Source of the DNA: a virus | DNA length: 64,000 nucleotides | Strand: one strand, 5' to 3' | Virus record (IMG/VR): IMGVR_UViG_3300044993_000080 | Span: 1 to 64,000 of that record | Shown here: one piece after another, positions 24,399-55,193 of the stretch | Layout of the letters: the number at the start of each line of letters is the position of its first letter | How positions within the stretch are numbered: position 1 is the stretch's first letter | Made by a program: the position numbers and the translations under genes | The notes under the pieces: model-generated | What the model was told of the DNA's origin: nothing | What the model saw: only the letters and a program-made list of their open reading frames with translations | Databases searched by the model: none

Positions 24399-25910
24399 TT
24401 ACATATCAAGCTGCACCCGCCTCTTGGCTCCCATGGTGCTTGTTGCAACGGGTTGCAAAACCCCACTCTCCGTGAACTGCAACTCGTTGGGCGGCAAATC
24501 CGCAAACAACTGGGTCAGGGTGTTGACGTGGTGATTATGCCCACTCCGCTTCGCATCCTTGCCAACGCTGGAGTAGTTGGACCCGCAAAGTATCACCCCG
24601 CCCGGTGCGTTGCGCAAGAGCACCGGGAAATTCTTGGTGCATACAGGAAAGTCGGGGCGACCATCCCACACGATCTTCGAGCGCAGATACTTGCGGCGGT
24701 GCATGGCGTGCTGAAGCGCGCTGGCGAAGTAGGTGTTAGACTGAATAGCGTGGGTGACGCGTGGGTCCATGCCGCGCTGTGGTGATAGGGGCGCGCTCTG
24801 GGTGCATTCGGCATCAGAGACAGCAACAGGAAGGATAAAAGCGACTTTGCACGTCTCAGCGATCCGCGTCCGCCACATGACGTGCTCGATGAATAGGAAC
24901 CGATGGTAGCCGTTGCTGCGGTGGATCAGCACGTGATCGCCGCTATTCAGCACATCCTCGGCTCGCCGTCCGTAGCGCCCGTCCGGGAATGTGCGAAATG
25001 CCAGCAACCGCCCGGCGCACCCACTGACCTGTCTGTTGTCATATGCGTGCTCGACCGGGAACGGGGTGTTGTTGCGGTCTTCGAGCACGAGCCGCCGTTT
25101 GCTGTATCGGTGCTCTGCGCCCTTATCGCCCTTTACGTGACCCTGTGTCGCAGCCAGTGCGGCGCGGGCGGTGTTGACGGCTGACGCCCGTAAGTTGTTG
25201 TCCAGTTTTTCCTTGTGCAGTTCGCGGTTCGAATTGGCACACCATTTCTCGTATATATCCGAGATTACACACGTGAACCGACTATTGACCTGCATGTGGG
25301 TGTAGCCGACCTCGCGCGGCTCCAGCCACGGGTAGCGGGTGTCGTAAATGAGCGCCACCCAGTCGATATACCATAGAAGCTGGCCGTCCACTTCAACATC
25401 GCAGTCTTTAGGGTTGGAAATGTCAAAGTGGGCGACTAGGAAATCATAGGTTCGTATGTTTGTCCCGCCGATACATTGCGCCGCCGTCAATAGCTCGTCG
25501 TGACTGATTTCGGTATAGACCACGGTGTCTTCGCCGCTGTCGTTCGGGATAGTGGAGAGCACCCGGACGATCTCTGCCTGAAGCCAATCGTCGTCTATCG
25601 AAAGCACAGGCACAACCTGATCTTTGTGAACATCCTGCGTCATACGCCAGCCCTGAGGAATGTGCGGGAACTTGGCATCTTCGCCGGGCGCAAGATAGTA
25701 ACAGATGCTGTGGCCCCAGTAGCCGTTATGGCCGCCAATGTTGTAGTGGGCTCGCCGCGCTTGCAGAACATGAACGTCGAGCACCGTGTAAGCCCCGTCG
25801 CAAACGGTCTCGTCTCCGATCCTGCTGAACTCGGGTCTGTAATGGAAGCGGCTGCTGCTCCAATCGCGTGTGTGCCGGACGTGGATGGGGTTAATACTGA
25901 TACGCGCCAA
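24399..25910 (-). CDS. Hypothetical protein (~503 aa)
   Basis: Long ORF with its own TTGACA promoter and GTCGAGAGGAGA leader. TTG start at 25910 inferred from SD spacing. Confidence 0.7.
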   Translation of the reverse strand: MARISINPIHVRHTRDWSSSRFHYRPEFSRIGDETVCDGAYTVLDVHVLQARRAHYNIGGHNGYWGHSICYYLAPGEDAKFPHIPQGWRMTQDVHKDQVVPVLSIDDDWLQAEIVRVLSTIPNDSGEDTVVYTEISHDELLTAAQCIGGTNIRTYDFLVAHFDISNPKDCDVEVDGQLLWYIDWVALIYDTRYPWLEPREVGYTHMQVNSRFTCVISDIYEKWCANSNRELHKEKLDNNLRASAVNTARAALAATQGHVKGDKGAEHRYSKRRLVLEDRNNTPFPVEHAYDNRQVSGCAGRLLAFRTFPDGRYGRRAEDVLNSGDHVLIHRSNGYHRFLFIEHVMWRTRIAETCKVAFILPVAVSDAECTQSAPLSPQRGMDPRVTHAIQSNTYFASALQHAMHRRKYLRSKIVWDGRPDFPVCTKNFPVLLRNAPGGVILCGSNYSSVGKDAKRSGHNHHVNTLTQLFADLPPNELQFTESGVLQPVATSTMGAKRRVQLDM

Positions 25911-25969
25911 TTTCAATCTCCTCTCGACACTGGCATATTGCCATAGCCTAGATTTATTGTCAAGCGCAA

Positions 25970-26641
25970 TCAGTCGAGATTGATCTGGCGAGTGCTAGGC
26001 CTGACAGGCAAACGCCTTGCCGAGATATACCCTTGCTGCGTATTATTCATGGTCTCTGACCATGTTTTGCAGTTAGTGCCCCCCGCGCTGTCCATTAACC
26101 GGTTGACTACATCCGGCGTCTCCCGTGCGATGCGCAACAACACAGGGTCGTCTATCCTGCTTCCTACTTCGCCTGTCATGGCCCTGACCAGTCGAGAGAG
26201 CCCTGCGTGCTCTGATGTGTGAACATAAATGAACTGGTCCGCCGCCGTGATAGCGAAAAAATGATTGTAGCCCTCCGTGTCTCGGAAGGTGTTCTCATTC
26301 CACTGCCCCACATGCGGTTGCGGCAACGCGCTCCACGATCTCTGGTGTTCCACGGACAACCAGATGACCGGCACGTCGGTGTCGATCATGTCCTGATCCG
26401 TAGGCTCTCGGTCGCTGACGACGATGACCTGCTTCGCGTCCTCAAACGCCAAGGGCATAGTATGCCGCCAATTCTCGCCCGCCACGTTGCGGTCCCGCAA
26501 GTCTTTCAACTCGGCTTCCTGCTGACCGCACTTCATCAAGAGCGCACGATACTTCCCCAGAATGCCTACCCCGGAATAAACCGTCATACCCGTGGCGATA
26601 ACGAGACCCATCACTAACCACGCGCTGACATCACCCATCAC
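25970..26641 (-). CDS. Hypothetical protein with N-terminal TM helix
   Basis: Hydrophobic N-terminus WLVMGLVIATGMTVYSGVGIL, translationally coupled to the upstream gene. Confidence 0.65.
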   Translation of the reverse strand: MMGDVSAWLVMGLVIATGMTVYSGVGILGKYRALLMKCGQQEAELKDLRDRNVAGENWRHTMPLAFEDAKQVIVVSDREPTDQDMIDTDVPVIWLSVEHQRSWSALPQPHVGQWNENTFRDTEGYNHFFAITAADQFIYVHTSEHAGLSRLVRAMTGEVGSRIDDPVLLRIARETPDVVNRLMDSAGGTNCKTWSETMNNTQQGYISARRLPVRPSTRQINLD

Positions 26642-26991
26642 TGCCGCTCCTTCGTCGCAAACTTCCCTCTGCCTGCATTAAACGGATAGTCTAGCGGGTG
26701 CTTGCTCTTGCCGGTTTTCGGGTCTCGCTCGTGCATCCACCTACGGAAATGAGCGTCGAACATGTAGCAGGGCAGTTGCGCGTTCGGAAACTTGGTCTGG
26801 TTCGGGTGTGGCACCTGCAACGTCACAACTGGCCATCCGAGCTTGCGAAGCTCGCTGCACCGAGCGTTGATGGCAAAACAGTTGTATTCGATGATGCTGC
26901 TAATCGGAGTGATCTTGTCGCCGGACAGCAAACCCATCAAAACACGCCACTGCTGGGTGCCCTCTTCGGGTAGTGGATTAGGGCGGGTCAC
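26638..26991 (-). CDS. Helix-turn-helix domain protein
   Basis: Q..RVL..L.SG.KIT......YN...INAR.SELRKLGW is a phage HTH pattern. GTG start overlaps the upstream stop. Confidence 0.7.
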   Translation of the reverse strand: MTRPNPLPEEGTQQWRVLMGLLSGDKITPISSIIEYNCFAINARCSELRKLGWPVVTLQVPHPNQTKFPNAQLPCYMFDAHFRRWMHERDPKTGKSKHPLDYPFNAGRGKFATKERQ

Positions 26992-27218
26992 AGGGGATAC
27001 TCCAACCGCTTGAGGTAAGCCGCCGCATCGAGATGGGGACGACGAGTGCGCAACCAATGCACCCAATAGACGTCAATAGGCAACGGGGAGCGGTGAGGCC
27101 GGGGCGGCACGGGGCCGCGACTGCCGGATGCAAAAGGGAACGCCTTGCAGAAGGCGTCGAACGCATCGAGCACTTCGCAAGAGCTAGGAAGGCCAGCGGG
27201 AACAAAAGGTGCAGACAT
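26988..27218 (-). CDS. Hypothetical protein
   Basis: Preceded by a TTGACA promoter and GTCGAGAGGAGA leader. Confidence 0.65.
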   Translation of the reverse strand: MSAPFVPAGLPSSCEVLDAFDAFCKAFPFASGSRGPVPPRPHRSPLPIDVYWVHWLRTRRPHLDAAAYLKRLEYPL

Positions 27219-27278
27219 ATCAAATCTCCTCTCGACCCTTACGGCCTAGCATAGCTGAGATTTGATGTCAACCCATGT

Positions 27279-27317
27279 AAAAAACGGCCCTGTCTCGCAG
27301 GGGGAGACAGGGCCGTT
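27279..27317 (-). terminator. Rho-independent terminator
   Basis: AACGGCCCTGTCTC-loop-GAGACAGGGCCG followed by TTTTTT on the minus strand. Confidence 0.9.
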
Positions 27318-27392
27318 CGTTTCGGCTAGTGGAAGGCGACACGAAACCTTGTCGAGAGGGAAACGTGCCTTTCTCAACACTCGCCTACTTAA
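27279..27392 (-). ncRNA. Candidate small regulatory RNA (~114 nt) antisense to early-gene leaders
   Basis: TTGACA(27427-27422)-17bp-TAACTT promoter, stem GGCACG/CGUGUC enclosing UUUCCCUCUCGAC, and a strong intrinsic terminator. No complete RBS-led ORF inside. Confidence 0.65.
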
Positions 27393-27456
27393 GTCCCCAA
27401 GTTAGACTGGCAAACCCTGAATGTCAAGCGGGCTATGATGCAACCCGTTGCACGCT

Positions 27457-27765
27457 TTAAGCGTTGAGACGCTCCGCGATCCACGCGGCGGTCGATCCCC
27501 GGACATCCAAGTCGCCATCCAACACCACGCAAATGCTGCGCCCTTGACTGTCGAAAACGTTGGGGCCGTCGCTGTGATAAGGCCCCCGCCCACGCTTGCG
27601 CCCCCCGGATTGTGAGGCCTCGACTGCACTGGTGTCCGGGGTCTCTTCCTCGGTTTCAAGTGCTGATGACGGCTCGGCGGCCACCACGCCCGTGGGACCT
27701 TCGATAGCTGCGGTGTCCGGGCGAGTGACGCGGGTGCGCGGGCTCGGGGTCTTGGTCTCGCTCAT
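27457..27765 (-). CDS. Hypothetical protein
   Basis: 102 aa, AGGAGG RBS, disordered N-terminal half. Confidence 0.7.
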   Translation of the reverse strand: MSETKTPSPRTRVTRPDTAAIEGPTGVVAAEPSSALETEEETPDTSAVEASQSGGRKRGRGPYHSDGPNVFDSQGRSICVVLDGDLDVRGSTAAWIAERLNA

Positions 27766-27840
27766 AATCTTCCTCCTTCGCTGTGGTGCTTGATACGCTG
27801 CCTATTAGCCGCCGTCCAGATTGATCGTCCGTGGGCGTTC

Positions 27841-28098
27841 TCACTGGCGGACAAGGGGGTCGCTTGCGAGCGCCGCTCTACCCGCTGCGGTGACGCTGTA
27901 TGTCACTAGATTGTGCTTCACTTCATGACGGGACACGAAACCTCGTTCCCTCAATGATCGTAGTGCAGGAGCAACCCTGCTGGAAGCCTTGGCGCGCTCA
28001 TGACCCAGAGCCAACCCCAGCAGGGTTGGTGTAAAACCGTCGCCGATTTGTTTTGCTGCCCGAAGTGCAGCTAATTCAGATTTCTTCAGCCTATCCAT
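27841..28098 (-). CDS. Winged helix-turn-helix DNA-binding protein
   Basis: L.SL.ERGFV.R......Y.VT.AGRAAL is a wHTH (MarR/PadR-like) pattern. GGAGGAG RBS. Confidence 0.8.
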   Translation of the reverse strand: MDRLKKSELAALRAAKQIGDGFTPTLLGLALGHERAKASSRVAPALRSLRERGFVSRHEVKHNLVTYSVTAAGRAALASDPLVRQ

Positions 28099-28158
28099 TT
28101 GCTCCTCCGTGGTCCGCCTATACTCATTGGTTGTGCGGGTTGCAACGAGTTGCAGCCG

Positions 28159-28845
28159 TCATAACATAACGCCCCCTTTGTCCGCGACATATAGCTTGGG
28201 TGACTGGATGCGCTGTTTACCCGCGCCTTCCAACGCGCTACGGATAAGCGCGATCCCTTCGTTTTCGTTCATTATCTCGCCGTGCCGCCAAACCTCGTAA
28301 TCTACCCAGCGCTTGATGTGCACTCGCCCGGTGTCATCGAGCCGGTAGTCGCTAACTGGGTATAGTTTGCGGTCCACCGCACGCGGCCACGTGATCGAAT
28401 AACTATAGGACCGCGCCTGCACGAATACGACTGGCCGATCCGGCATGACGGTGTGGTCCACCGCAATGTCGAAGGGCACACCGTTCTTAGTGGCCGGTAG
28501 CCCGTCCAGCCGCTTCGTGTATTTCGGTGCGGCGAGGTAAGGGCAGACCTTGAGCGCGTAGCTGGAGCACTCGTGGTGCATAGGGCTGTCGATGTAGCAG
28601 CCGTGAGGGTGGAAAGCCGATAGCGGCCCTCCTACCCACCATAGGTCGCCGATCTCCAGCTCTCCGCCGCATATCGGGCAAAGCATTTCCTCCAACGCCT
28701 GCCACGACTTGCGATCATCGTTGACCGTAAACAGCGGCTCCCCTGCGTTGTCACGCGCCACGTTCCATGGGATAGGGAAGCCCCGCCGATCTCTCGGCAG
28801 GTGCTCCATGCGTTCAGGGACAGGCACGTCCCACCACTTAAACAT
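28159..28845 (-). CDS. Hypothetical Cys/His (Zn-binding) phage protein
   Basis: RGFPIPW, CPICG and P.H.EC..YA...CPYL motifs. Confidence 0.7.
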   Translation of the reverse strand: MFKWWDVPVPERMEHLPRDRRGFPIPWNVARDNAGEPLFTVNDDRKSWQALEEMLCPICGGELEIGDLWWVGGPLSAFHPHGCYIDSPMHHECSSYALKVCPYLAAPKYTKRLDGLPATKNGVPFDIAVDHTVMPDRPVVFVQARSYSYSITWPRAVDRKLYPVSDYRLDDTGRVHIKRWVDYEVWRHGEIMNENEGIALIRSALEGAGKQRIQSPKLYVADKGGVML

Positions 28846-29878
28846 GGCAATCGACCGCAACAAGGATCGTGTCCGGGTCCATGGCTTCGAGCCGGGCCAT
28901 GATTTCGCGGTGCCAGTGCTTATTCTCACCGGCAACTACGGCGAACATCAGCATCTGGCCCTTCTCGTGCCAGCCGTCCTTATCGACCAAAGCAAAGGGC
29001 AGGACGGTCGTGGCGGCCTTGCGGAATACCACGTCATCACGCGGGCCGATCCAGTCGGTCACGCTGTCGAAAAAGTCAATGATCTTGCCCCCGGCCCAAT
29101 GCTTTCTGTTTTTGTCGGTCGCGTCGAATGCCACGACTTCACGGGCCGCTACGATTGCGGGCTGCTGGTTGAATACCTTCCGGGCCGTGTCGTAATCAGA
29201 AGCATAGCGTTCTTTGATAGTCTCCCACGTCTCGGGCTTGGGGTGCTGCGCCATCGCCGCGTGGATGTCGTCATAGTAACGTCCGTAACGCTCCGTGGCA
29301 GTCTCGATGCGCTGCTTGAACGGCCAATCGCCCAGCCGGATCGAGTTGCCGTCTCTGCGAAAGCCCTGAAGCGCAGCCGGGACGTTCGGGTTGTCCTCGG
29401 TGCCCTCCTCGCTGAACATGCCGCTCCAGCGCCCGCCAATGACATACCAGTCCCACTTACGGTTCGGGTTGGTGCGGTTCACCACGCGGATGACCTCGTG
29501 CTCGCAGCCGACAACCTTGCCGTCATCGGCTGCGAGCTTGATCTGGAGCTTGGCTTTGGCCGGGCGAACTTCGATGTAGCCGTATTTGTGTTTACCGCTG
29601 ATGTCCGGCGTCTCGCCTTCCATGACAAACTCCAGCCCGTAGTGGCTGCGCGCCCAGTCGGCGAAGCTCGTCACTTCCCCGCTGCGGGTCGTCGCGTATT
29701 CCCAGCTTGCGCGCGCCCCGTCGGTCTCGTCGACATCGACCACGTATTCGTTGTCTATGCCGGTGCACTCGAACTCGTGGTAAGGTGCGAGCATCGGGGC
29801 GATGGCCGCGCTCAGATCGCCATTGGCCTCGGCCACCTTCTCTGGCGGCACCGCTACTATCACGACAAAATGCGACAT
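28838..29878 (-). CDS. Conserved hypothetical phage protein
   Basis: MSHF.V.V, NPN.KWDWY.IGGRW.G and terminal VDCH motifs. Confidence 0.75.
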   Translation of the reverse strand: MSHFVVIVAVPPEKVAEANGDLSAAIAPMLAPYHEFECTGIDNEYVVDVDETDGARASWEYATTRSGEVTSFADWARSHYGLEFVMEGETPDISGKHKYGYIEVRPAKAKLQIKLAADDGKVVGCEHEVIRVVNRTNPNRKWDWYVIGGRWSGMFSEEGTEDNPNVPAALQGFRRDGNSIRLGDWPFKQRIETATERYGRYYDDIHAAMAQHPKPETWETIKERYASDYDTARKVFNQQPAIVAAREVVAFDATDKNRKHWAGGKIIDFFDSVTDWIGPRDDVVFRKAATTVLPFALVDKDGWHEKGQMLMFAVVAGENKHWHREIMARLEAMDPDTILVAVDCHV

Positions 29879-29892
29879 TCATTCAACTCCTG

Positions 29893-30609
29893 TTATGGGT
29901 GGTGTCGGGTTTGACCCACTCCGGGTGCTTCGCCCTCTTCCATCTTGAGAGAGCCTTCATTCCAGCCTACCGGCCATCTAAAGGTGTCACTGTTGACGCC
30001 CCAGAGGTGGTATTGGTTAGCTGTATCCACCACGCGATCCTCGCATGGGTAGAGTTCGACGGCCTCGCAGTTCGGGCCTAGCAGTTCGTTCTTGATGCGC
30101 TGCATGTCCGCCCAGTGGGCGCGCAACGGCTTCTGGTCGTGGCGCTTGATTGACAGGTGCACCATCTCGATCACGCCACCTTCACCATCCATGGTGAGAG
30201 TGCGCCGGACCGCCACGTGATACCGGGAATTGATGTAGTGCTCGTCTTCCATAGTCGTGAGGTAGATCGCGCGCATCTCTTCCATGGTCTTGCCGGACTT
30301 GGCACCTAGAATGCGAAAGCGCTCTTCCGCTCCGGCGGTGAAGAGCTGGCGCAGGTCTACGTCTGCGGGCTTGAATGGCGTCCATTCCGGGTCCGCGTCG
30401 AGCCGCCGCAGCCGCTCTCGGTAGAGGTCGTCGAGTATCCGCTCGTAATCCTGTGCCGGGCGCTGGCCAATCTCCGCGACGGCATACTTGAAGTCCTCGA
30501 CCATCTCGGGGATATTCGAGTGCAGTCCGGCCACTACCGCCATAACACGGTCGATCTTTTCTTTCAGGTCTGCGTCGGTGAGCCCGCGCAAAATTTCGGG
30601 AGTAATCAC
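29893..30609 (-). CDS. Hypothetical protein
   Basis: C-terminal HLSIKR.D.....W..MQRIKNEL.G...EAVE.YP......D.AN.YHLW domain common in phages. Confidence 0.75.
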   Translation of the reverse strand: MITPEILRGLTDADLKEKIDRVMAVVAGLHSNIPEMVEDFKYAVAEIGQRPAQDYERILDDLYRERLRRLDADPEWTPFKPADVDLRQLFTAGAEERFRILGAKSGKTMEEMRAIYLTTMEDEHYINSRYHVAVRRTLTMDGEGGVIEMVHLSIKRHDQKPLRAHWADMQRIKNELLGPNCEAVELYPCEDRVVDTANQYHLWGVNSDTFRWPVGWNEGSLKMEEGEAPGVGQTRHHP

Positions 30610-31400: not shown

Positions 31401-31451
31401 AATCAACTTCCTCTCGACTAGGCGAGACTATGGCCTAGGCAAGATTTGTTG

Positions 31452-33962: not shown

Positions 33963-34037
33963 TTTAGTCTCCTCTCGACATAAGAGGAATGGCATAGCCC
34001 GGATTTTATGTCAAGCAAAAGCTGTGGAAAACTACCG

Positions 34038-35115: not shown

Positions 35116-35560
35116 GTCAGTTCTCCCTTTCGATAAGTGAAGACTGCCATAGGCTAGATTTGTTGTCAAGCGCCACGGTCTGGCTCGTCGAAAATGAGCG
35201 CCCGTGACGGGCGCGCTGCAATAGGTTGCAAGCACTTGGGTTCGACCTTCGGCGCGAAGGGCGTCCTTCGCCGCTTCGTCTGGTTTGGCGGGTCATTGGG
35301 TATCATGCGCCCATCAGGTGTGGGTGCTGATGCTCGACATCTCGGCGTTGCGATGTTGATTGCGGCTGGGTGGTGGCGCGGTCGCCTGCGTAGGCTCGCT
35401 CGGGCAACTCACGGGCGATCTCTCGCGGGTGTAGCCTAGCTCACGCCCTGCCTCTTCCATCAGGATCAGGACACGCCGGGTGGTGCGTGGGTTTGCGAGG
35501 CTTGCGGGGATCGATACCAGACCCGGCATCACGCCACAACCTAGTTTTGATGCCAAGCCG

Positions 35561-37101: not shown

Positions 37102-37156
37102 TTATGACACATCCTTTCTATACTGTCAACATGACATGAACGACTTTCATTGTCAA
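37102..37156 (-). promoter_or_regulatory. Tandem sigma70-type promoters in an AT-rich island
   Basis: TTGACA-17-CATGTT overlapping TTGACA-17-CATAAT. Confidence 0.65.
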
Positions 37157-37197
37157 GCACCACTGCAACCCGTCGCAACGACCTACTCTTCGTTTTA

Positions 37198-40459: not shown

Positions 40460-40629
40460 TTCAATCTCCCTTTCGACCCTCACACATTGGCCTAGGCGAG
40501 ATTTTATGTCAAGCGGAAAGTTGCAACGGGTTGCAAATCTACTCTATCATCAGCGGGCGGTGTGAGCCCACTCACCGTCTTGCATGGAGCTTGCAGGGCA
40601 CCGGGGCTCGATGTCAAGCGCCGGGGCCT

Positions 40630-43620: not shown

Positions 43621-43682
43621 AGTCGCCACTCCTTCTCGATAGATCAGGTGTAGCGTAGCCGGGATTTTATGTCAAGCGGAAA

Positions 43683-44024
43683 GTGGGGCGCTTCTGTTTC
43701 CCGGTGCGCCCCGAACCGATGTCAAGCGCAGTTAAGCGGCGAGACGAAGTGCAGTTTCCTGCGGGTTGTCGTTGGCATTTCTGCTAACTGTCCCGTCACG
43801 GTGGGCCAATCCGGGTCGCGTCTCTGTGTCCAGTCTGGCTGTCGATCCTGTTTCACCCCCGTCAAGAGCACCGCACCTACCCTCGCTTTCGCGTTTTTGC
43901 GCCCGAAGTAATCGCCCATGCACAGACTTTCCCTACCCGACGAGGTAGCAGCGACGCTCATGGTGGAGGTGGCGGGCACTGCCCCCGCGTCCAGCCGTTC
44001 CTTCGCAGGCCGTATATCGACCAT
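43683..44024 (-). ncRNA. ssrA: Circularly permuted (two-piece) tmRNA
   Basis: Acceptor piece ends GCGGG-GGCAGTG-CCCGC-CACCTCC-A-CCA (43961). A 100-nt intervening segment follows. The coding piece starts GGGGGTGAAACAGGATCGAC (43860), giving an acceptor stem with G3.U. Tag frame 43776-43732 reads ANDNPQETALRLAA*. Promoter TTGACT-17-TATTGT upstream. Confidence 0.95.
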
Positions 44025-44200
44025 AGACGCACAATAACCTACACCGGATTTGTAGTCAAACCCTGTTTGGCAAGTCCGTGCGCCCCCGCATACGGCGTTC
44101 GTTCCGAACCGGGTCTCGCTGATAGCCCTCGTGTGCAACGGGTTGCAGCGTGCTCGGTGTTCGGGTAAGCGTCCGGGTGTAATTCAATGGGAGCCCGGAC

Positions 44201-47451: not shown

Positions 47452-47663
47452 ATGCGGTTGCCCCACGAACGGCTGTCAGTATCAGCCCGCCCTGACTGAC
47501 TGGCGATCAGAGCGCGCATCTGCTTAATGTGCTTGCGCATGAAGGCCGGGTCATGGCGCAACTGGTTGTGAATACGATCACGCTGCTGGACGTGCCGGTA
47601 GGCTTGCATTTCGTCCATACCGGTTTCGGCCATGATTTCCTGAATACGTGCTTCACGTGCCAT
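47448..47663 (-). CDS. Hypothetical protein
   Basis: Own promoter and GTCGAGAGGAG leader. Confidence 0.7.
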   Translation of the reverse strand: MAREARIQEIMAETGMDEMQAYRHVQQRDRIHNQLRHDPAFMRKHIKQMRALIASQSGRADTDSRSWGNRI

Positions 47664-47742
47664 CTCAAACTCCTCTCGACTTGATAACGTTAGAATAGCG
47701 CACATTTATTGTCAAGAGGATAAACCTGCACCCGGTTGCAAG

Positions 47743-55136: not shown

Positions 55137-55193
55137 TTGAAATCTCCCTTTCGACCCCTTAATCATGGCTTAGGCGAGATTTTATGTCAAGCG
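55134..55193 (-). repeat. 60-bp promoter+leader+ATG cassette, copy 1
   Basis: CGCTTGACATAAAATCTCGCCTAAGCCATGATTAAGGGGTCGAAAGGGAGATTTCAAATG. Identical at 58583-58642, one substitution at 60714-60773. Confidence 0.95.

Follow-up and report, generated by a model that had tools for sequence, protein, structure and literature searches.

A hairpin loop complementary to a leader repeated on many operons points to a candidate anti-leader RNA in an uncultured hot-spring-mat phage

The DNA analysed here (the window) is the first 64,000 bases of the IMG/VR virus record IMGVR_UViG_3300044993_000080, a phage of 84,416 bases (G000) from a hot-spring mat metagenome, with 59% GC and nearly all genes on the minus strand. 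At 27279-27427 a promoter-like site is followed by a hairpin (hairpin a) whose loop is the reverse complement of a short leader shared by about a dozen operons of the phage, and then by a strong terminator, an arrangement that may specify a non-coding RNA addressing those leaders by base-pairing. Read along the minus strand, TGCAACGGGTTGCA is followed after 11 nucleotides (nt) by TTGACA, 17 nt, TAACTT, about 7 nt, about 110 nt containing the hairpin, the terminator, and at once the next promoter. The features of the locus are as follows.

27439-27452, minus strand: palindrome TGCAACGGGTTGCA, separated by 11 nt from the −35 box downstream of it and repeated ahead of several other cassette promoters
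27399-27427, minus strand: promoter-like site, CGC-TTGACA (27427-22), 17 nt, TAACTT (27404-399)
27279-27393, minus strand: predicted non-coding transcript of about 110-115 nt, ending at the U tract
27338-27369, minus strand: hairpin a, a GGCACG/CGUGUC stem with a 20-nt loop, in full GGCACG-UUUCCCUCUCGACAAGGUUU-CGUGUC
27351-27363, minus strand: anti-leader sequence UUUCCCUCUCGAC, in the loop of hairpin a
27279-27318, minus strand: intrinsic terminator (15-bp stem, 7-nt loop, U6), found by scan and fold, which also ends the P31455 operon
27226-27271, minus strand: next promoter cassette, with TTGACA at 27271-66 and leader GGGUCGAGAGGAGA (27236-26), driving an open reading frame (ORF) of 76 amino acids (aa) and a coupled HTH_39-like gene

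A preliminary description of this stretch had proposed a small RNA (sRNA) that acts as a one-RNA switch, shutting off an early regulon by covering the ribosome-binding sites of its mRNAs. Its statements about the sequence were all found at, or within 1-4 bases of, the places it gave, among them the TTGACA-17-TAACTT promoter, the hairpin and the strong terminator with its 15-bp stem and U6. The promoter was not called by a consensus scan because TAACTT fits only 3 of the 6 positions of TATAAT, and its geometry would place the transcript start near 27392. The candidate RNA is predicted to fold at −49 kcal/mol (z = −4.7), and 0 of 200 shuffles fold as well. In this predicted fold the GGCACG/CGUGUC stem has an unpaired probability of at most 0.02, CUCGACA (27356-50) is at least 0.92 unpaired and thus exposed, and the CCC of the anti-motif is partly paired with GG 27348-47. 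An Rfam scan of 27150-27550 at E up to 1 returned only Pxr (RF01812), at 24 bits against a gathering score of 80 (E = 0.034); this sub-threshold match to the Myxococcus Pxr sRNA (27279-27386, minus strand) spans the whole model (1-109) and probably reflects generic stem-loop and terminator architecture. The same scan found no homology to the phage c4 RNA, for which Rfam contains a model.

That the transcript contains no complete ORF led by a ribosome-binding site was confirmed on the minus strand, where the sole ORF (27246-27380, 44 aa, GTG start) runs through the terminator; by the ORF list and by inspection of the sequence, neither strand of the stretch holds a credible ORF. It is very improbable that the product is instead a small protein, read either from a 31-codon plus-strand frame starting at GTG 27365 behind GTCGAGAGGGAAAC or from a 44-codon minus-strand frame starting at GTG 27380. 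The ORF list does contain frames at 27329-27460 (plus) and 27246-27380 (minus), and the plus-strand GTG lies 4 nt past a copy of the leader motif, a spacing fit for a ribosome-binding site. However, upstream of the plus-strand frame there is neither a TTGACA cassette nor another promoter, the minus strand having all 15 genomic copies of the CGCTTGACA element (the plus strand has 0) and essentially all genes; the inverted motif of the syntenic phage G001, introduced below, has no start codon at a usable distance; and the minus-strand frame lacks a ribosome-binding site and continues through the terminator into the next promoter.

The leader to which the loop is complementary is strongly over-represented. 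GTCGARAGGRR matches the window 10 times against 0.22 expected, and 0 of 100 shuffles reach 10. Nine of the matches lie on the minus strand, which is the gene strand, and one is inverted, on the plus strand at 27351-27361. The leaders, with their pairing to the loop of hairpin a (loop a), are listed here.

25918-25928, minus strand: leader of P25963 (UGUCGAGAGG), ten contiguous pairs; heads the operon of a 505-aa gene, the portal and the capsid
27226-27236, minus strand: leader of the cassette that follows the terminator, nine pairs, counted by hand because the gene caller missed its ORF
31408-31418, minus strand: leader of P31455, CCUAGUCGAGAGG; 12 of 13 positions pair, −21.1 kcal/mol; its operon ends at hairpin a and the terminator
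33969-33979, minus strand: leader of P34014, ten contiguous pairs
35126-35133, minus strand: a tenth leader, TCGAAAGG, found by sequence search; leader of P35169, UAUCGAAAGGGAGA, an imperfect match
40467-40477, minus strand: leader GGUCGAAAGGGAGA of the palindrome-associated promoter P40512; 12 of 13 pairs, one A.C mismatch
47670-47680, minus strand: leader of P47715, nine contiguous pairs
55145-55155, minus strand: leader of P55190, same type as P40512
58594-58604, minus strand: leader of P58639, same type as P40512
60725-60735, minus strand: leader of P60770, same type as P40512
42202 and 43639: leader variants GGTCGAGTAGGAGA and TATCGAGAAGGAG, both present

Each gene-strand copy sits in a repeated promoter cassette of the layout cgCTTGACAtaAAATcT...-(G)TCGARAGGRGA-N6-9-ATG, in which TCGA is preceded by a TTGACA −35 box, then, after a 17-nt spacer, by a weak −10 hexamer and another 7 nt; in 11 cassettes TCGA starts exactly 36 nt past the first T of TTGACA. 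This geometry predicts a transcription start on or just before GUCGA and, because the motif lies at the predicted start, the motif would be at once the 5’ end of the mRNA and its ribosome-binding site. Two related phages (G001 and G005, introduced below) independently agree with this placement. In G005, GUCGAAAGG of the leader of an AAA-ATPase gene starts 7 nt past a clear extended −10 element, TGGTATTGT. In G001, the ATG of the orthologue of the helix-turn-helix (HTH) gene directly adjoins TCGAAAGGG, implying a leaderless mRNA; at this start (L054 14150-14186, minus strand) the ATG lies 6 nt past the −10 hexamer and the cassette motif forms codons 2-5. About 27 cassettes of the form CTTGACATAAAAT...(G)TCGAAAGGGAA were found in G001, together with the same palindrome as in G000. 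This palindrome, TGCAAC-N3-GTTGCA, is dispersed in both genomes, often 7-12 nt upstream of the −35 box; its copies in G000 span 21525-62250 and beyond, examples being the following.

27439-52, 40521-35, 48604-18, 51969-82, 60780-92 and 62238-50: palindrome copies

In distant relatives one copy lies directly upstream of an HTH_39-like gene, and because of this adjacency the palindrome is probably the operator of the HTH_39-like protein.

The motif is a property of operon heads. With promoter-proximal and internal gene sets drawn from a rough gene caller made for the analysis, TCGARAGG occurs within −22 to −1 of 7 of the 12 promoter-proximal genes of G000 and at none of 100 internal ribosome-binding sites, the corresponding counts in G001 being 6/16 and 0/103. 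The claim that GUCGA is confined to promoter-proximal genes thus stood. It had also been argued that something besides the ribosome conserves GUCGA; the ribosome alone is indeed insufficient, but a promoter or start-site function (the fixed 36-nt distance from TTGACA) is possible as well. We considered GARAGG as an extended Shine-Dalgarno sequence pairing to the 3’ tail of 16S rRNA, using a tail sequence that may differ from that of the host, and rejected this as the main cause, since internal sites carry it at 1/100 in G000 and 5/103 in G001.

When the 20-nt loop was compared with the start regions, 6 of 112 could form 9 or more uninterrupted Watson-Crick pairs, a level reached by 0.2% of 5000 coding windows, which upholds the complementarity between loop and shared leader described before. 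Ten contiguous pairs were formed with the leaders at 25916 and 33962 and with two UCGAGAGGGA leaders outside the window, and nine with those at 47663 and 31406. Up to 12 of 13 pairs had been given for the (G)-type leaders; GGUCGAAAGGGAGA, identical in four palindrome-class leaders, does reach 12/13, with an A.C mismatch that splits the duplex. Duplex energies of loop a are similar with many leaders (−19 to −23 kcal/mol). A duplex-energy ranking, in which a 33-nt piece of the RNA was run against all start regions, is uninformative because shuffled loops score as well. A generic count of k-mers complementary to any leader did no better than controls, being swamped by palindrome repeats. Promoter P62229 (62131-62229, minus strand), of the palindrome class, has a 65-nt leader whose first hairpin, GGCCCG/CGGGCC, carries the sense-like GCCGAGAGGAGAG in its loop; this loop, with a modelled duplex energy of −22.2 kcal/mol, could either form a kissing pair with the anti-leader loop or serve as its decoy.

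To compare the locus across phages, relatives were sought with the portal, 505-aa, HTH, AAA and capsid proteins as anchors and with cassette DNA patterns, and two or three related genomes were examined. The near clade among the relatives found comprises only G001 (93 kb), G005 (85 kb) and a 7.8-kb fragment, L009. G001 is an IMG/VR genome of 93,409 bases with terminal repeats and about 50% GC; it is syntenic with G000, with 66% identity in the portal and 83% in the capsid. G005 (85,340 bases, 54% GC) is more distant, its capsid being 66% and its AAA protein 55% identical to those of G000, and has a promoter cassette unlike that of G000. L009 has a portal of 71% identity and carries one cassette and GTCGAGAGGAG. 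Eleven metagenome loci and 9 further viral loci with the HTH gene are distant, without the cassette and without the motif; L083 also lacks both. G002 (L041) was rejected as a relative, being unrelated.

A counterpart of hairpin a is present in G001. At 14354-14325 of that genome, in the non-coding stretch immediately ahead of the cassette that drives the HTH orthologue, lies the hairpin GCGCC-gaCCCUUUCGACAAucggaa-GGCGC, and the loop core CCCUYUCGACAA is common to both phages. The single C/U difference within the core mirrors the leaders of the respective genome: in G000 part of them read GAGAGG, in G001 all read GAAAGG. In the stem, 3 of 5 pairs are changed on both sides between the two phages and every position still pairs, against 20-67% in slid controls. 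The non-gene strand has a single GTCGARAGG in G000 (27351) and two in G001 (14338, 15412), each of them in this neighbourhood upstream of the HTH gene. The G001 hairpin lies downstream of a palindrome-associated promoter and a gene X that is absent from G000; given that nothing of gene X stands between promoter and hairpin in G000, the two phages share the palindrome promoter and hairpin as one unit. The same arrangement allows for a relic without a dedicated function, in which the G000 promoter is that of the lost gene X, the terminator is simply that of the operon, and the inverted motif is a leftover of cassette recombination or a chance match. The missing gene X, flanks that do not align with G001, a marginal enrichment of the anti-motif in G000 alone and the lack of a plus-strand promoter cassette at the inverted motif are all consistent with this. 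Against it, CCCUYUCGACAA has been kept at the syntenic site on a changed stem despite a difference of about 9 points in GC and about 40% of protein residues, anti-motifs are in excess in the non-coding RNA of G001, and a sister element is conserved in three genomes, so that we consider a relic improbable.

The sister element lies after the AAA-ATPase gene (G000 80029-81777, outside the window; Pfam AAA 2.7e-29), between it and the next gene.

G000:C1 79952-79989 (L080 15952-15989): post-AAA hairpin UCCGGCUGGCA-CCCUCUCGAUAAGUGA-UGCCAGCCGGA, −26.4 kcal/mol, z = −5.5

Its loop sequence CCCUCUCGAU is the exact complement, over 10 bp, of AUCGAGAGGG in the leader of the AAA gene itself (81762-53; L080 17753-17762). 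The syntenic hairpin of G001 has a different stem (−20.5 kcal/mol) and the loop CCCUUUCGUCAAUUGU, in which CCCUUUCGUC complements GACGAAAGGG of the G001 AAA leader, again over 10 bp. Between the two phages the AAA leaders show three differences (A to G, U to A, G to A), and all three are compensated in the loops, so that the loop follows the deviant AAA leader of each genome (AU in G000 and GA in G001, where GU is usual). In G005 the AAA leader is the only TCGARAGG on the coding strand, and the hairpin past the AAA stop codon carries CCUUUCGA on a third stem, giving 8 bp. The post-AAA hairpin had no Rfam hit with E up to 1. Alignment of the three hairpins with MAFFT and RNAalifold was not in structural register, and its pair counts were left unused. 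These leader-loop pairs provide good comparative evidence that such leaders and loops would pair as RNA, and the post-AAA loop is better supported than hairpin a. They also suggest that the AAA leader-loop pair is ancestral and that the leader spread later with the promoter cassette. Covariation of seed and leader in relatives, which the preliminary description had called for, is suggested by the homologous loop of G001, the one relative with hairpin a, and by the compensated post-AAA changes; hairpin a itself is absent from G005 and the more distant relatives.

Further anti-leader copies extend this picture. In the non-coding transcribed strand CCCTYTCG occurs 3 times in G001 against 0.09 expected (P = 1e-4), and 2 times in G000 (10,290 nt) against 0.34 expected (P = 0.047). 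With a second anti-leader loop in G000 and three in G001, the notion of a one-RNA switch fails. One G001 copy belongs to an inverted repeat with 12 perfectly matched bp, UCCCUUUCGACC-N16-GGUCGAAAGGGA, that spans the spacer and start of promoter P15429 (L054 15383-15424; −27.5 kcal/mol, z = −6.1); it would mask the P15429 ribosome-binding site only in read-through RNA, or it could be a DNA operator of two half-sites.

RNA pairing to the leaders is likely, and hairpin loops and leaders of this kind probably form a system of RNA-pairing control of translation. For the stretch at 27279-27427 the reading we favour, and hold tentatively, is an anti-leader RNA transcribed both from the promoter directly in front of it and as the 3’ end of an operon; starting at CUCGACA, it would pair with the 5’ ends of several cassette mRNAs and occlude their ribosome-binding sites. 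The element would be a non-coding RNA whose hairpin loop is the reverse complement of the 5’-terminal leader on cassette mRNAs. It could exist in two forms, a discrete RNA of about 110 nt from the palindrome-associated CGCTTGACA-17-TAACTT promoter, and the 3’ end of the upstream P31455 operon, which would stop at the same terminator. In vivo, pairing would start between the exposed CUCGACA and (U)GUCGAG at the extreme 5’ end of target mRNAs, and the duplex would extend over the ribosome-binding site (GAGGG), repressing translation initiation of the first cistron in several operons; the stability of the target mRNAs may be lowered as well. We infer action in trans, with the strongest effect expected on GAGAGGAG-type leaders at 25.9, 27.2, 31.4, 34.0 and 47.7 kb. 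The candidate promoter is of the palindrome class, whose own leaders match imperfectly, and the best-matching leaders belong to non-palindrome promoters at 25-34 kb; such a layout would suit a delay rather than early shut-off. The label of an early regulon is not established, because the best targets include P25963, the head of the portal and capsid operon.

Several observations weigh against this reading. Five identical GAAAGGGAGA leaders pair with loop a only across an internal A.C mismatch that splits the duplex, and in the duplex-energy ranking 72 of 112 start regions reached −14 kcal/mol or lower, compared with a mean of 67 for shuffled loops. Folded alone, hairpin a of G000 is weak (−9.6 kcal/mol, z = −0.2), and GUUGAG at 27378-73 is able to compete for CUCGAC. 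Hairpin a is found in two genomes only, being absent from G005 and from the more distant relatives L060-L083; its stem covariation is weak, 59 of 500 shuffles doing as well, and the intergenic regions of G000 and G001 do not align beyond the loop core. In G001, partial pairing of the anti-motif within the loop is predicted (UUUCGA with UCGGAA), shuffled sequences fold as well as the whole region does (z = −0.6), and the hairpin sits in a 3’ untranslated region without a promoter of its own. The CCCTYTCG enrichment in G000 taken alone is, as given above, marginal.

The absence of a separate promoter in G001 also bears on whether the loops act only in cis. On such an account, which would leave no global regulator, loop a would pair with the P31455 leader at the head of its operon, 4.1 kb upstream, or would mask the next leader (27236-26, 115 nt downstream) in read-through RNA, so that only promoter-initiated mRNA would be translated. 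The hairpin does lie at the 3’ end of the P31455 operon, whose leader CCUAGUCGAGAGG offers the longest pairing span (12/13, −21.1 kcal/mol), each post-AAA loop specifically fits the AAA leader variant of its own genome, and the G001 inverted repeat at P15429 would mask the ribosome-binding site just in read-through RNA. By contrast, a plausible promoter stands directly upstream of hairpin a in G000, which a purely cis-acting element would not need, a strong terminator separates the hairpin from the downstream leader, and loop a is not operon-specific, because its energies are similar across many leaders. We regard restriction to cis as unlikely.

The inverted repeat at P15429, where two inverted motif copies flank the promoter core like an operator of two half-sites, raises a further possibility, namely that motif and anti-motif are one protein recognition site in either orientation, as DNA at the transcription start or as RNA, with RNA-RNA pairing irrelevant. 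At many promoters the motif covers the predicted start, which is where a repressor classically binds, and two winged-helix proteins are encoded beside the stretch, both with Pfam matches below the curated cut-offs (HTH_39-like, 16.8 against 21.3 bits; PadR-like, 20.7 against 27). However, G000 and G001 together have 5 anti-motif copies, 4 of which are in loops closed by stems that differ between the genomes, something a double-stranded DNA site would not need; the post-AAA loop tracks the leader of its gene where this departs from the usual consensus; and the abundant TGCAAC-N3-GTTGCA palindrome is the more obvious operator for helix-turn-helix proteins. A protein site is thus quite improbable as the explanation.

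A wider version of the anti-leader reading can also be drawn, and we think it doubtful as it stands. In it, one 5’-terminal tag, (G)UCGARAGGG, on the first cistrons of most operons would be read by a few anti-tag loops, forming a genome-wide RNA-RNA network that times translation. The tag would arise through duplication of a host-type promoter cassette, the phage appearing to rely on host-type promoters throughout; one anti-tag would be a free sRNA made from a promoter of the palindrome-regulated class, with the rest lying inside operon ends; and tag and anti-tag would co-evolve as a unit between phages (GAGAGG with CUCUC, GAAAGG with CUUUC).

The finding resembles antisense pairing already known from the c4 RNA of phages P1 and P7 and from icaR-type mRNAs. 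The c4 loop and its target differ together between the related phages P1 and P7. c4 RNA (phages P1 and P7, immI) is described as a phage small RNA whose loops pair with same-strand mRNA near the ribosome-binding site and block translation (PMC12197685). Like c4, the G000 loop is complementary to same-strand phage mRNA sites covering the ribosome-binding site; unlike c4, which controls a single antirepressor operon in temperate phages, it faces a leader repeated on about 13-15 operons, and the only Rfam hit of the G000 RNA with E up to 1 is the sub-threshold Pxr. In icaR of Staphylococcus aureus and hbs of Bacillus subtilis, a sequence 3’ of the coding region that is complementary to the ribosome-binding site pairs with the leader of its own mRNA (PMC3868564, PMC5737220), and long-range sequences of this kind are, by its description, the subject of a preprint (PMC12697547). 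The post-AAA loop fits this pattern closely (10, 10 and 8 bp in the three genomes), and hairpin a with the P31455 leader possibly does so too. As far as the cited descriptions go, icaR and hbs are single host genes, whereas here many operons share the leader, the loop of a large hairpin contains the anti-leader, and a separate promoter precedes one of the copies.

Other sRNAs derived from 3’ untranslated regions or directed against Shine-Dalgarno sequences (DapZ and MicL types; the C-rich loops of RsaE and AbcR) use an exposed C/U-rich seed to pair with the ribosome-binding sites of several mRNAs. The candidate RNA is like them in having its promoter inside or after the last gene of an operon, a terminator in common with the mRNA, and an exposed C/U-rich seed. 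It differs in that the seed reaches the non-ribosomal GUCGA at the predicted mRNA 5’ end and in that regulator and targets are both phage-borne. In phage T4, the RegA repressor and the RegB nuclease (GGAG) are proteins that act post-transcriptionally on the ribosome-binding region of many early mRNAs; many phage mRNAs are addressed at once here as there, but the candidate regulator is an RNA. A literature search by title found no phage RNA aimed at a leader common to many phage operons, which does not prove that none is in print, and the phage antisense RNAs known to us that block a ribosome-binding site each act on one operon. New in this analysis are the placement of the motif within a repeated cassette, its absence from internal ribosome-binding sites, the syntenic hairpin of G001 and the comparison of AAA leaders and loops in three phages. 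If the favoured reading is true, one short RNA sequence addresses about a dozen operons via a leader copied along with its promoter, a compact form of post-transcriptional coordination of gene expression. Leader-loop pairs that co-vary across phages of very different GC yield direct, falsifiable predictions for compensatory mutation, and the case shows that the intergenic hairpin loops of uncultured phages can be read against each phage’s own leaders.

As to the setting, the 8 public runs listed for 25900-28200 are all DNA contigs from hot-spring or microbial-mat metagenomes, none of them RNA, and two of them may be the source; four metagenome runs compared over the region show zero variant letters, just one of them, the probable source, covering the 27279-27427 stretch itself. 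Megablast of 26000-30000 against a phage collection gave no match; judged by the portal, Rhizobium phage L338C (51% identity) is the closest relative with a name. Closer homologues of the HTH protein exist in the protein database (P0002-P0008, 67-88% identity). No sign of lysogeny genes was seen in the parts of the phage genome examined. The promoter-proximal genes are mostly small ORFs that belong to no informative family, and searches with 10 of their proteins gave no informative PHROG. An Rfam scan of the window at gathering level reported one RNA alone, a tmRNA that lies away from the candidate RNA.

43641-44077, minus strand: tmRNA gene of the alpha-proteobacterial two-piece (permuted) type, Rfam 117 bits and ARAGORN; tag ANDNPQETALRLAA

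The 505-aa protein encoded upstream of the portal (24399-25916, minus strand) is 28% identical to its L009 counterpart (L009 220-1812), where portal and capsid are 71-82% identical, and is thus the product of a fast-evolving gene without a family match. Beyond the terminator of the candidate RNA, within 26638-27218, the 76-aa ORF (27218-26988, minus strand) ends in CTGTGA, overlapping the GTG start of the HTH_39-like gene (26991-26638), an arrangement of translational coupling; a longer 142-aa TTG frame is probably not used. Finally, at 37129-37161 (minus strand) two overlapping TTGACA boxes behind a palindrome are followed by UAGAAAGGAUGUGU, with no obvious gene start in the 14 nt inspected, and this may be another orphan promoter.

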